Assembly (NCBI GenBank): GCA_051652765.1
Contig: JBOFUV010000051.1
Coordinates: forward strand, 1-10,497
DNA from: Microcoleaceae cyanobacterium
GTDB taxonomy: Bacteria; Cyanobacteriota; Cyanobacteriia; Cyanobacteriales; Microcoleaceae
Length of the DNA: 10,497 nucleotides
Direction of reading: 5' to 3'
Of the stretch, positions 4,947 to 10,497 are shown piece by piece. The notes under the pieces are model-generated. The model was not told where the DNA came from and ran no database searches. It was given only the letters and a program-made list of their open reading frames with translations. How positions within the stretch are numbered: position 1 is the stretch's first letter; the number at the start of each line of letters is the position of its first letter. Position numbers and translations under genes: made by a program.

Positions 4947-4960
4947 CCAATAGAAAAATA

Positions 4961-5033
4961 GTAGGTTGGGAAGAATCAGCGAACCCCAACATTCCATTGG
5001 AATGTTGGGGTTCGCCAACTCAACACCACCGAC
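4961..5033. repeat. REP-doublet (REPIN-like) inverted repeat, possible gltB 3' hairpin
   Basis: Perfect 18-bp inverted repeat GCGAACCCCAACATTCCA-T-TGGAATGTTGGGGTTCGC (4979-5015). The 30-bp unit at 4961-4990 starts with GTAG and has an internal GTTGGG...CCCAAC palindrome. An inverted degenerate copy at 5004-5033 matches it at 22/30 positions. Confidence 0.7.
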
Positions 5034-5354
5034 TCAACTATTCATTGAGTGTTTATCCAGTGTTTATTCAGTAATGTGCCTTTGGAAAATCGAATTTAGC
5101 TTAAAAAGCCCGCTCCACTTTTATTCCAGCCAGATTGCAATCGGTAGTTGTTCTCTATCAGCCGTTGTATCTCAGAGGACCAACTCTCTTTCAGGAGTTT
5201 TGTAATAATTAATTGTGCCAGAATGCAAAGTGTGAATCCTGAGACTTCAGGAAGCCAATGTCAAGTGTTGAGGAATTGGTTGCGTCCTCCTTGGGAAGGT
5301 CTTACGGCTTTCTCAGTGATCTAAATCCCATAAATCATCAAGGACACTAATCCA

Positions 5355-6733: not shown

Positions 6734-9166
6734 ATGGTTACTAGCCAGCTTCTCGATCGACGCTATCAAATCATGGAAATCCTCGAGTCCACGGACATCG
6801 GGAAAACCTATTTAGCCAAGGATACTCGTCGTCCTGGAGATTCTCTCTGCTTTGTAAAGCATTTGCTCTTGGCTGCCGAGGAGCCTGAATTTGTCGAAAT
6901 TGTCCGCCGTCGCTTTCAACAGGAAGCCCAAACCCTAGAAAAGCTATCCGAACATGATCAAATTCCTCACCTGCTGGCTTATTTTGAGGAAAATAGAGAA
7001 TTTTATCTGGTGGAATCCTACGTTGAGGGTCAGTCCTTAGCCAATGAGATTCAACCTGGGCAGCCGTTGCCGGAACATCAACTGATTAAAATTCTGATTG
7101 AAGTTTTAGAGGTGTTGATTTTTGTCCACGGGCATGGGGTGATTCATCGGGATATTAAACCCAGCAATTTATCCCGCCGAAATTCAGATGGAAAATTAAT
7201 CCTGCTGGATTTTGGGGTAGTCAAAGAGATTAACCTGCATGAGAACTATAGTCCTCGCACCGCTAGGGTAGGAACCCTGGAATATATGCCTGTGGAACAG
7301 TTCGAAGGTCATCCTCAACTGAACAGTGATATCTACGCTTTGGGGATGATTGGAGTTCAGGCCCTAACGGGATTGCCAATTTATGAATTGCGCCGCTTAC
7401 GAGAAGGCAATCAATCGAATGGACGAGAAATTGCTTGGCGACATTTAGCCATTGTCAGTCAGGAGTTGGGCGATATTCTAGACAAAATGGTGCGCTATGA
7501 TCACCGCCAACGCTATCAGTCTGCTGGGGAAGTTTTGGCAGCGTTGAGACGGTTGAGCGATCGCCCCCAAACCACTGCAGCCAAACTAGAAGTGTATCGC
7601 AGTGAGGTTCGACGCTGCGCTGACCATCGCGGAGATATTTCTGTGGTGGGTCGAAAGATTCTAGATGAAATGCGCTTGAGTTTGGAGCTTGATCCAGAAG
7701 AAATTGAACCGATTGAAGATGAGATTTTAAACCCTTATCGGAAATATCATCAAAAAGGGGAACGGTACGAACAAGCCTTGGCTGCCGCAATTCGTCAGGA
7801 ATACCCCTTCAGCCCCGAAACTATTGAAGAGTTGAAGCGACTGCAACAAATTTTAGGCATTAGTGATGATGACGTTGCAGTGCTCGAACAACAGGTTTTA
7901 CCCAAATCGTTTTGGGACAAATTAGCGGAAAGTATTCCGGGGTTAAAGTCCAAGTCCTTAAAACGTTTACAGCCCCATCGAAGTTCTCCCACGGCTTACT
8001 TGCCCCGGAGAACTTCACCCAATCCCTGGATTTTAGTGGGAACCAGTTTGGCTGCTTTGTTAGCCCTGGGACTGGCAATTTTCGAGTTTCAAAGACGACA
8101 AGATCTACAGGTGACTCGACTGCAACAACAACAGCTTGATCAGCAAGCATTAAGTCGGATCAAACAAATTTCTGGCCGGGGAAGTTATGAACTTTGTATT
8201 AACGAAGCGACTAAAATTCCGGAAACCTCTAGTCAATTTGTTGAAGCCAAAAGTCTGTTACAGCAGTGTCAAGATGCTTTAAGCTGGAGAGTTCCTAAAG
8301 TTCAGGATTTTGCCCAGGTTCCCAGTGAAGTGAATGCGATCGCCTTTAGTCCCGATGGCAAATATTTGGCCAGTGGCAGCCAAGAAGGTTTGGTGAAAAT
8401 TTGGGATGCCGTAACAGGGGAGCTATTAGAAACCTTTGAAGGGGATTCATCGCCCATTTGGGCGGTCAATTTTAGCCCAGATGGACAAGAATTGGCGACA
8501 GGAAGTGACCTTTGGAGAATTCTAGAGTGGAACTTGGCGAACAAAGAATTGTTTGTGCCGTTAGAACATGCTGGGGCAATTTGGTCAGTAGATATTAGCC
8601 CTAATGAACAAACAATTGCCAGTGCCAGTAGTGATTTAACGGTGCGAGTTTGGGATCGACAAAGTGGGCTGGTTTTGTTTGATTTCCCGGTTCATACTGA
8701 TATCGTTTATGCCGTTGCTTTTACCCCCGATGGCACTCAATTAGTCAGTGGCTCCCAGGATCAAACGATTAAAATCATTAGCCTGGAAACGGGAGAGGTT
8801 CTCAAGAGTTTAGACGCGCATTCAGGGGGGGTTCGTACCTTGGCCGTTAGCCCCGATGGTCAAAAGATCGTGAGTGGAGGGTTCGACGATACGGTCAAAA
8901 TTTGGAGTCTAGAAACGGGCAAGTTGTTGCAGACATTGTCAGGACATTCTGGAGACGTTCTCTCCGTTGCTATTAGCCCCGATGGGCGCTCAGTTGCGAG
9001 TGGGAGTGCCGATCGAACGGTGAAAGTTTGGAGTCTAGAAACCGGTGAATTACTAAACACCCTGACTGGCCATACCAATGAAGTTGATACGGTTGCATTT
9101 AGCCCGGATGGAAGAGTTCTAGCGAGTGGCGGCAAAGATCGTGCAGTAAAGTTCTGGAAGCAATAA
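6734..9166 (+). CDS. Pkn2-type Ser/Thr protein kinase with transmembrane helix and C-terminal WD40 repeats, 810 aa
   Basis: Kinase motifs CFVK, HRDIKPSN, DFG, GTLEYMPVE and SDIYALG; hydrophobic WILVGTSLAALLALGLAIF; about seven WD40 repeats (e.g. GHSGDVLSVAISPDGRSVASGSADRTVKVW). Confidence 0.92.
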   Translation: MVTSQLLDRRYQIMEILESTDIGKTYLAKDTRRPGDSLCFVKHLLLAAEEPEFVEIVRRRFQQEAQTLEKLSEHDQIPHLLAYFEENREFYLVESYVEGQSLANEIQPGQPLPEHQLIKILIEVLEVLIFVHGHGVIHRDIKPSNLSRRNSDGKLILLDFGVVKEINLHENYSPRTARVGTLEYMPVEQFEGHPQLNSDIYALGMIGVQALTGLPIYELRRLREGNQSNGREIAWRHLAIVSQELGDILDKMVRYDHRQRYQSAGEVLAALRRLSDRPQTTAAKLEVYRSEVRRCADHRGDISVVGRKILDEMRLSLELDPEEIEPIEDEILNPYRKYHQKGERYEQALAAAIRQEYPFSPETIEELKRLQQILGISDDDVAVLEQQVLPKSFWDKLAESIPGLKSKSLKRLQPHRSSPTAYLPRRTSPNPWILVGTSLAALLALGLAIFEFQRRQDLQVTRLQQQQLDQQALSRIKQISGRGSYELCINEATKIPETSSQFVEAKSLLQQCQDALSWRVPKVQDFAQVPSEVNAIAFSPDGKYLASGSQEGLVKIWDAVTGELLETFEGDSSPIWAVNFSPDGQELATGSDLWRILEWNLANKELFVPLEHAGAIWSVDISPNEQTIASASSDLTVRVWDRQSGLVLFDFPVHTDIVYAVAFTPDGTQLVSGSQDQTIKIISLETGEVLKSLDAHSGGVRTLAVSPDGQKIVSGGFDDTVKIWSLETGKLLQTLSGHSGDVLSVAISPDGRSVASGSADRTVKVWSLETGELLNTLTGHTNEVDTVAFSPDGRVLASGGKDRAVKFWKQ

Positions 9167-9240
9167 ATTCTGCAGGAATAGTGCTTGAGCCGAATCGCAT
9201 CGCGCACCTGATCCAGCAGCTTTTTCGGGCGTTGTTCCAT
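9166..9240 (-). pseudogene. intI: Integron integrase N-terminal remnant (~22-25 codons)
   Basis: MEQRPKKLLDQVRDAIRLKHYS(CRI) matches the IntI N-terminal pattern KLLDQVR..IR.KHYS.RTE. Similarity ends at the kinase stop, and the rest of the 126-aa ORF is antisense to WD40 codons. It is oriented divergently from attI and the cassettes, as in canonical integrons. Confidence 0.85.
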
Positions 9241-9246
9241 TTGGGG

Positions 9247-9468
9247 TTTATGCAGAAAATTTCAAGGTAATCCTCCGAATAAATCGATGTTAGGCCGAAC
9301 ATTGCTGTGTTTCATCGGAGAATATACTGAAAATTTCAGGATAATCCTCAAATTTAGGATGTATACCCAGAAAGTTTCAGTATAATTTCAGCATCAGGGT
9401 AGATTATATGGAAAGTTTCAGGGTAATCATCCCAAAAGCGTTGGTTATGCAGAAAATTTCAACATAAT
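9247..9468. repeat. Five dyad-symmetric 25-bp direct repeats (NWTA-N4-GAAA-R-TTTC-A-N3-TAAT) in the intI-attI interval
   Basis: R1 9247-9271 TTTATGCAGAAAATTTCAAGGTAAT; R2 9321-9345 AATATACTGAAAATTTCAGGATAAT; R3 9362-9386 TATACCCAGAAAGTTTCAGTATAAT; R4 9403-9427 ATTATATGGAAAGTTTCAGGGTAAT; R5 9444-9468 GTTATGCAGAAAATTTCAACATAAT. Start-to-start spacing is 74, 41, 41, 41 bp. Confidence 0.9.
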
Positions 9469-9480
9469 AACTAGTTAGGC
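9462..9480 (+). mobile_element. attI: attI recombination simple site (crossover G9474|T9475)
   Basis: ACATAAT-AACTA-GTTAGGC: a degenerate inverse L box, 5-bp spacer and GTTRRRY R box, the same layout as attI1. GTTAGGC is the exact complement of the GCCTAAC R'' of the downstream attC. Confidence 0.8.
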
Positions 9481-10360
9481 AGAATTAAACTTAAGGAAAG
9501 TGAGAAATTAAAACTGTGACTGAAGATAAAGGCAAAAAGAGAGTTGCGCTTGTCACGGGTTCAACATCTGGGATTGGGATGGCGATTGCAAAGCGTCTTG
9601 CTGAAGAGGGATTTAATGTTGCTTTTCATTCCAGGTCTTCAGTACTAATTGGAGAGTCATTAGCGGAAGCACATCCAGGATCATCTTATTTTCAGGCTGA
9701 TTTGTCCGACCAGAGCCAGTCTCGTAATCTGATCGCCGAAGTATTGTCGCATCACGGTCGGTTGGATGTATTGGTCAATAATGCAGGTATTAGCGCCACG
9801 ATTCCACATACATCTCTTAAGGAAGCATCACCGGAGATCTGGCGGAGTTTGTATGAAGTCAATGTCATAGCACCTTGGACACTAATTTCAGAGGCTGAGA
9901 TTGCGCTACGCCAGTCATCAAGGAGTGAATGTCCTAGTTGTATTCTCAACATTAGCTCTCATGCAGGTATTCGCCCTAAAGGAGCTTCAATTCCTTACTC
10001 TGCTACCAAAGCTGCTCTGAATCACATGACAAAGCTACTTGCGATGAGTCTAGCACCACAGATTCGTGTGAATGCGATCGCGCCAGGTTTGGTTGACACC
10101 CCGATGAGCAAAGATTGGACAGCCGCACGAAAGCTCTGGGAAGAACGATCTCCGATGGGACGAGGAGCGCAACCAGAAGAGATAGCACAGATAGCTTTTA
10201 TGATTGTTTCAAGCCACTATCTTACGGGAGAAATTATAATTTCAGACGGAGGGCTAAATCTCACATAGTAAAAATCATGCCTAACAACCCCGTTGCACAC
10301 CGACCGAATCAAGCTGATCGGTGAGTCCGAAAAATTGCTGGCGGCGGGTGAACGGGAACG
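9475..10360 (+). mobile_element. Integron gene cassette 1 (886 bp, single SDR gene plus attC)
   Basis: Bounded by G|TTAGGC (9474) and G|TTAGAC (10360). The single ORF starts 41 bp into the cassette and attC begins 10 bp after its stop codon. Confidence 0.85.
9516..10268 (+). CDS. Classical short-chain dehydrogenase/reductase (SDR, FabG-like), 250 aa, cassette-borne
   Basis: GTG start; TGSTSGIG cofactor motif, DVLVNNAG, NISS, catalytic YSATK, RVNAIAPGLVDT and C-terminal YLTGE...DGG. Confidence 0.92.
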   Translation: MTEDKGKKRVALVTGSTSGIGMAIAKRLAEEGFNVAFHSRSSVLIGESLAEAHPGSSYFQADLSDQSQSRNLIAEVLSHHGRLDVLVNNAGISATIPHTSLKEASPEIWRSLYEVNVIAPWTLISEAEIALRQSSRSECPSCILNISSHAGIRPKGASIPYSATKAALNHMTKLLAMSLAPQIRVNAIAPGLVDTPMSKDWTAARKLWEERSPMGRGAQPEEIAQIAFMIVSSHYLTGEIIISDGGLNLT

Positions 10361-10366
10361 TTAGAC
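10279..10366 (+). mobile_element. attC: attC site (88 bp)
   Basis: R'' GCCTAAC 10279-10285, 5-bp spacer, L'' CGTTGCAC 10291-10298, then L' GTGAACG 10348-10354, 5-bp spacer, R' GTTAGAC 10360-10366. The arms pair as CGTT[G]CAC[A]CCG[A]CCG with CGGCGGGTGAACG, leaving three extrahelical bases (10295, 10299, 10303). Confidence 0.92.
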
Positions 10367-10384
10367 TTACTTCAGCGTTCAGAT

Positions 10385-10495
10385 TTAGAGATTCCTACAG
10401 AAATTTTCTAGTACTGGGACTGAGGCTCCTAAAATTTTGTCTATACCTAGCAGCAATACGGCTCCTCCAATTGCAACTATTGTGTAGTTCAATCT
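10385..10495 (-). CDS. Possible 3' end of a reverse-oriented gene in cassette 2 (partial, hydrophobic)
   Basis: Open frame from the window edge: RLNYTIVAIGGAVLLLGIDKILGASVPVLENFCRNL*. The stop at 10385-10387 is ~24 bp from the crossover. A second minus-strand frame is also open for 33 codons, so the frame is uncertain. Confidence 0.35.
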   Translation of the reverse strand, partial: RLNYTIVAIGGAVLLLGIDKILGASVPVLENFCRNL

Positions 10496-10497
10496 CT

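Follow-up and report, generated by a model that had tools for sequence, protein, structure and literature searches.

The attI1 site of class 1 integrons is described, in excerpts of PMC4792948, PMC8946536 and PMC3146285, as a simple site with an L and an R box plus two direct repeats, DR1 and DR2, in all about 65 bp. According to the same excerpts, DR1 and DR2 favour recombination between attI1 and attC and may act as topological filters (PMC8946536), and a role proposed for them is to keep IntI1 close to the simple site (PMC3146285). The attI sites of 30 marine environmental families (PMC3146285) and attIA of Vibrio (PMC8946536) are, in the portions of these papers used here, mostly reported without accessory repeats. 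According to an excerpt of PMC4889954, most integrons have no known attI, and no search for attI is possible. Arrays of attC sites that lack a working integrase, i.e., CALINs and chromosomal integrons with an inactivated intI, have been proposed to be mobilisable in trans (excerpts of PMC4889954 and, for Xanthomonas, 10.1101/2025.06.18.660453), and Xanthomonas strains with the same lesion usually share their arrays at one locus (10.1101/2025.06.18.660453, in part).

The window analysed here (10,497 nucleotides, the whole of contig C51) contains a site that resembles attI1 in its simple site with a 5-bp spacer, its G|TT crossover, the divergent intI next to it, and the core-like boxes upstream; like DR1 and DR2, these boxes are core-site-like accessory sequence upstream of the simple site. 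It differs from attI1 in carrying 11 extra boxes instead of two, in occupying about 230 bp instead of about 65 bp, in having its boxes in both orientations instead of as direct repeats, in arranging them as back-to-back pairs, and in a fixed period of about 41 bp; the class 1, 2 and 3 loci show neither such a period nor phased units. The site in the window is neither a class 1-type attI nor a complete integron. It shares a simple site beside intI with the environmental and Vibrio attI sites, whereas those sites mostly lack accessory repeats. As in CALINs, attC arrays are present and the genome has no working integrase; however, unlike CALINs and the Xanthomonas arrays, attI has been kept, and there are 23 scattered platforms, 12 of them with one exact breakpoint, whose first cassettes differ. 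At the Xer sites cer and psi and in the arms of lambda attP, host proteins, or a separate domain for arm binding, occupy an upstream tract. The tract in the window is likewise long, upstream, a candidate for protein binding, and may impose topology on a tyrosine recombinase, but its boxes resemble the recombinase's own core site. The features of the window are listed in Table 1.

Table 1. Coordinates of the array, the attI simple site, and the adjoining features in the window.
Feature	Position	Strand	Remarks
intI 5' stub	9166..9240	-	22 clear codons, 25 at most; non-functional
R1 dyad unit	9247..9271	n/a	6 bp from the intI start codon; 20.1 bits with the model trained without this genus
R1b degenerate sixth unit	9289..9313	n/a	13.5 bits; left arm GTTAGGC-CGAA
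R2 dyad unit	9321..9345	n/a	motif match and half-site model
R3 dyad unit	9362..9386	n/a	motif match and half-site model
R4 dyad unit	9403..9427	n/a	motif match and half-site model
R5 dyad unit	9444..9468	n/a	left arm in DR1-like position, right arm = L box
attI simple site	9462..9480	+	L box 9462-9468, 5-bp spacer, R box GTTAGGC 9474-9480
First gene cassette, SDR-family oxidoreductase with its own attC	9475..10360	+	ORF 9516-10268; single copy in the genome
attC site	10279..10366	+	R'' GCCTAAC ... R' GTTAGAC; long hairpin on the bottom strand
Start of probable second cassette	10361..10497	+	follows the attC R' box; broken off by the contig end

A motif scan of the window found five exact matches to GAAARTTTCA-N3-TAAT, at 9255, 9329, 9370, 9411, and 9452, where 0.01 are expected and none of 200 shuffled sequences reached five. 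The five repeats with this invariant motif that an earlier note had picked out by inspection are thus confirmed, and the sequence of R4 is indeed the perfect dyad ATTA-N4-GAAA-R-TTTC-N4-TAAT that it had reported. The start-to-start distances from R1 to R5 are 74, 41, 41, and 41 bp, with 16-bp linkers between R2 and R5. The 41-bp period and the linker length therefore stand as first described; the characterisation of the linkers as unrelated does not, as their C/G-rich ends are kept across genomes. Similarly, R1 does start 74 bp from R2, but the gap is not empty: the degenerate unit R1b splits it into 42 and 32 bp, and the spacings become 42, 32, 41, 41, and 41. The two arms of R1b are unequal, the left one scoring 10.25 bits with a perfect core-type GTTAGGC and the right one 0.04 bits, and a unit of this type was scored in 8 further platform copies of this genome. 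Each unit consists of two back-to-back boxes, RTTA(T/G)RC-RGAA, and the geometry in the window is box(7)-11-box(7), separated by 16-bp linkers, with a final box-5-box at the crossover; ahead of the simple site the six units place their 11 extra boxes over about 220-230 bp. Tandem Repeats Finder did not detect the array in the window. A CRISPR array or a structured RNA family was also considered and excluded: the repeats are 78-85% alike, the linkers are short (14-16 bp) and have conserved ends, and an Rfam search returned nothing near a gathering score, its one match being a chance miRNA match (E 0.87).

The proposal that the right arm of R5 serves as the L box of attI agrees with what follows it, 5 bp and then GTTAGGC, and with the cassette starts (9474 and 9472) in other samples. 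The crossover probably lies at G|TT, between 9474 and 9475. The R box and the R'' box of the attC downstream are complementary, and the bottom strand of this attC folds better than expected (z -3.1, with 0 of 200 shuffles as good). The left arm of R5 lies 30 bp before the crossover G, the corresponding distance for class 1 DR1 being 32 bp. Contigs from two public runs, X1 and X5, contain the same SDR cassette from 9474 and 9472 onwards, attached to other upstream DNA in which, by eye, a 25-bp dyad and a 4-5-bp spacer again precede the cassette; the public-run data consisted of contigs, none of which covers the array of the window. The occurrence of one cassette behind different dyads supports both the position of the crossover and the mobility of the cassette. 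The inverted L and R boxes with some 5 bp between them, the G|TT crossover, the adjacent intI (a stub here, full-length in relatives), and the attC-bounded cassette downstream together bear out the identification of the array region as attI.

The intI gene in the window is dead. Its ATG is at 9240 on the minus strand, and the stub extends as far as the stop codon of the kinase gene upstream; its N-terminus is the same as that of the near-complete intI of G002, a genome of the same genus, and the 126-aa read-through ORF across it has no NCBIfam match. R1 does lie 6 bp from an intI start codon, as first noticed, but what begins there is a remnant of 22-25 codons rather than a gene. No match above the TIGR02249 cut-off was found in the assembly (a draft of 158 contigs, 99.97% complete by markers), where the longest remnant covers residues 1-110 and is frameshifted; the intact intI of a complete integron is missing from this assembly. 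Given the stub in the window and an assembly in which no whole intI was found, integrase would have to come in trans, in the past or in the future, for the site to work. In relatives, full-length intI genes adjoin homologous arrays. Among the full-length cyanobacterial intI matches at loci L169-L190, many have a single in-frame stop, mostly TAG.

Between 336 and 9166 the window carries flanking genes of the host. A 1536-aa ORF looks, by its own sequence, like glutamate synthase; the others encode an FAD-dependent oxidoreductase that is type II NADH dehydrogenase-like and, upstream of the intI stub, a Ser/Thr kinase with WD40-like repeats. An inverted repeat with 37-bp arms (4960-5034) directly follows the glutamate synthase gene and is probably terminator-like or a dispersed repeat. 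The best homologues of the kinase in G001 and G002 lead into other genes without an integron, and no exact insertion junction could be defined from them.

The platform to which this array belongs is found at 23 places in the genome, with attC within 15 kb downstream at 18 of them; 85 attC-like sites were found in the genome as a whole. Twelve platforms have one identical intI breakpoint, beside a 22-bp tandem repeat (C17, C22, C34, C45, C52, C64, C67, C82, C97, C103, C116, and C146, with a variant at C50). In these, intI breaks off after codon 21 and is joined to a segment of about 70 bp and to 22-bp units that end in GAGATCAA and are repeated in tandem about 2 to more than 20 times, with ragged far ends. 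Of 61 genomes, two contain the 22-bp unit: the present one and G002, which has at least nine platform copies, one of them adjoining the near-complete intI, which contains a stop codon. At C116 and C61 attC lies upstream of the 22-bp tandem array, and at C144 the array comes after an attC cluster. The first cassettes behind the platforms differ: in the first 300 bases past the crossover, similarity was found in one pair of copies only (19 platforms were anchored correctly, one was mis-anchored, and three had no anchor).

The paralogs carry between one and six units, and C45, with three, still has attC sites downstream. At C71, C146, C67, C45, C34b, and C103 units have been lost in register, and at C103 two types of array are joined. 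As far as these sequences can tell, this suggests recombination between units and between platform copies. Among 13 paralogs, fewer of the key arm columns are variable (21/70) than of the remaining arm columns (24/40), but they are no less variable than the linkers (14/41) or the dead intI stub (15/63); these counts thus do not demonstrate selection on the arms since the loss of the integrase.

For comparison across hosts, intI loci were taken from genome searches and from plasmids, leaving out 9 of the 80 loci of one genome search that had short upstream DNA, two truncated loci, and partial matches. Motif-free autocorrelation of the 300 bp upstream of intI gave a significant period of 39-43 bp in 19 of 26 other main-clade cyanobacterial loci, in none of five picocyanobacterial-type loci, in none of five loci from other classes of the phylum, and in 4 of 68 non-cyanobacterial loci (three Chloroflexota and one Blastocatellia). 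When model columns 9-10 were disregarded, phased units turned up in 20 of the 24 held-out cyanobacterial loci that could be scored (26 fetched; 0/24 shuffles), in 2 of 71 loci from metagenomes (80 fetched), and in 1 of 55 further non-cyanobacterial loci, the shuffles of the latter two sets giving none. The kin among these loci are not independent, so the figures are counts and not tests. The earlier note had made its reading depend on the period being kept in orthologous intI-attI regions, and in 19/26 and 20/24 loci it is kept. The GAAARTTTC core does not hold up as a general motif, occurring in 18 of 98 units and at 10 of 26 other loci; judged from these units, this centre is lineage-specific.

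Across hosts the units are 24-27 bp long (98 units) and their centre varies freely. Of 72 linkers, 66 measure 14-16 bp; the linkers have conserved CC..GG ends, with position 4 being C in 52/66 when read from the 5' end and in 56/66 when read from the other end. Spacings fall at 39-42 bp in 66 of 72 cases and at 32-33 bp in two, with none at 34-38 bp; in the held-out loci, where a required pair at 38-43 bp biases the distribution, 53 of 60 fall at 39-43 bp, five at 30-32 bp, and none at 33-38 bp. These spacings correspond to four or three helical turns and fit phasing; however, tandem duplication alone would also give a dominant period. A unit followed 4-6 bp on by GTT was found at 21 of 26 other cyanobacterial loci and was the last scored unit in 19, while a unit beside the intI start was found at four (G002, G017, G278, and G072). 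By eye, four Chloroflexota loci (L057, L064, L067, and L071) have near-consensus sigma70 promoters just upstream of intI (TTGACA/G, about 17 bp, TATAAC/TACAAT-type), which point from the intI start over the array towards the cassettes.

A symmetric half-site model was derived from 25 loci outside this genus, seeded solely with the GTTRRRY core; a two-strand de novo EM had merged two registers of the quasi-symmetric arm, and the seeded model was used instead. Its consensus is GG-N2-RTTA(T/G)RC-RGAA, and it detects all six units of the window; some arms score poorly (0.04-3.7 bits). Because of the seeding, the first model columns do not constitute independent evidence. The strongest column is the unseeded G at position 8, which is common in attC boxes too (0.75 and 0.64). 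The 58 distinct attC R'' boxes of the genome score 2.75 bits on columns 3-8 and random GTT words -8.29, a difference of 11 bits that was reached in 0 of 5000 resamples; in the same 58 boxes no enrichment was seen at positions 9-10 (AA). Class 1 DR1 and DR2 reach 6.8-7.0 bits on model columns 0-8; the class 1 record that supplied them carries a duplicated DR1. Given that the box columns match both attC cores and DR1/DR2, candidate accessory IntI sites, one of the two roles originally put forward for the repeats, are the reading that fits best.

A post-hoc rule relating IntI residues 239-241 to box position 9, which would have tied the boxes to IntI by covariation, did not provide such a tie. 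It held in 22/22 and 7/7 training arrays, which rest on three changes in the tree and one independent pair on well-supported branches, and failed on held-out loci, where it had no power: fixed before these were fetched, it was correct for 19/19 of the common type and 1/4 of the other type, and 22 of the 23 held-out loci had A anyway, including three of the four predicted to be non-A. A column scan for association between IntI and box was best at residues 25-29, outside the helix of residues 239-241. In a single case, a Y-[ED]-Q-[ST] helix follows RRHH in the integrase of L009 (G036a) as well as in that of L130 (class 1), and the boxes at these two loci end in AGCAG.

We consider it likely, going by sequence, that the array is an extended attI whose paired boxes probably bind IntI and would aid cassette capture. 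One true crossover site would lie at the end of the row, and the remaining boxes would be candidate IntI docking sites. Two boxes on either side of a linker face one another over 16 bp, equal to the 5-bp simple-site spacer with one helical turn added; they would therefore reproduce the phase of the simple site though not its distance, and IntI would bind there without cutting. IntI monomers on facing boxes would sit on the same face of the DNA, unable to form a cutting pair, and these boxes would be binding-only sites. By analogy with DR1 and DR2 of attI1, the row may hold IntI near the simple site or wrap the DNA, which would favour insertion by attI x attC recombination with no need of host factors; the array would thus load IntI and bias the reaction towards cassette capture. 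Where a unit abuts the intI start, it may also repress intI, a role that is moot in the window. The period of about 40 bp could in part be inherited from tandem duplication. A more far-reaching version, which we regard as possible but doubtful, has IntI forming a phased filament on the attI of about 230 bp that acts as a topological filter and self-repressor, the whole being a free-standing module copied to more than 20 chromosomal places without integrase; these copies would together make up a distributed integron, to be reloaded in trans each time an integrase enters the cell. The array is a real, conserved, and apparently undescribed attI variant, with IntI binding and function inferred; no description of a phased multi-dyad attI was found in the literature searched, a search whose reach excluded most subscription papers and attI-alignment supplements.

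Alternatively, the boxes may bind IntI mainly for regulation, titrating the enzyme or repressing intI and gating cassette transcription in place of LexA control. R1 lies close to the intI ATG, the same placement recurs in the four loci named above, and, according to the part of PMC3108266 available, only the beta/gamma-proteobacterial LexA motif was found in intI promoters, the cyanobacterial LexA motif being divergent. By eye, the last unit of L011 (G017) reads TTGACA-16-TATAAT and that of L015 (G028) nearly so; the last dyad of these two loci doubles as a promoter-like TTGACA/T-16-TATAAT, and Pc may therefore overlap the L box. However, in only 4 of 26 other loci does a unit stand beside the start codon, whereas in most the array is anchored on the crossover, and TATAAT is one reading of a reversed box. 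The array region, which had been labelled a promoter region, gave no sigma70 promoter in a consensus scan of 9150-9560, in which no terminator was found either. The suggestion that the array couples intI expression cannot operate here either, as intI is a stub and nothing is left to be regulated in cis. Overall, we judge a mainly regulatory role unlikely. Operators for a dimeric host or accessory factor that shapes the synapse, the other role originally put forward, seem still more improbable. ArgR and PepA at cer and IHF/FIS-type proteins play roles of this sort. The dyad symmetry, the GAAARTTTC centre kept in this genus, and the conserved CC..GG linker ends would suit such a factor, and host factors have been inferred for the Vibrio attIA reaction (PMC8946536, in part). 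Operators of a host transcription factor would be expected at other genes of a regulon, but a genome scan placed 57 of 58 matches of at least 18 bits and 31 of 31 phased pairs at platforms; outside them, there were 49 weak matches against 48 in the shuffled genome and no phased pairs. The free centre, the 24-27-bp units across hosts, the identity of the conserved columns with those of attC cores, and a layout that crosses phyla (Chloroflexota, Blastocatellia) also speak against a host factor.

A role for the dyads as single-strand hairpins or as cruciforms, comparable to a series of attC-type substrates, is very improbable. The bottom strand of 9240-9482 does fold far better than shuffles (z -5.2), and perfect palindromes occur among the units of relatives; however, in 22 arrays the arms do not pair specifically with their partners as in attC-type hairpins. 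Complementarity within units is 669/1023 against a permuted mean of 675 (p 0.81), and across linkers it is 467/704 against 475 (p 0.86); nor is there an R''-5-L'' arrangement upstream. We give equally little credence to neutral tandem amplification of a DR1-L segment, functionless beyond the last unit. The paralogs lost units in register down to one, show no clear constraint, and, in the case of the shortened C45, retain downstream attC sites, all of which such amplification would accommodate; but period, box columns, and CC..GG ends persist over families and phyla while centres and linkers diverge.

The half-site model combined with the 41-bp period makes attI searchable in cyanobacteria and in some Chloroflexota and Acidobacteriota, and such a search exposes capture sites that would otherwise be classed as CALINs. 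What accessory IntI boxes do, as a topological filter or in local retention, has so far been judged from the two repeats of attI1; the natural series of arrays with two to seven units, together with the spacing variants that differ by one turn, makes this role directly testable. The array also bears on the control of the integrase where the proteobacterial LexA box is absent.

Many arrays of this genome also contain a cassette of about 210 bp beginning GTTATCTTGC (e.g., C22:52464-52675, C82:9559-9345, and C136:1155-1365). Its start motif has 14 matches, and the cassette is possibly gene-less or promoter-bearing.
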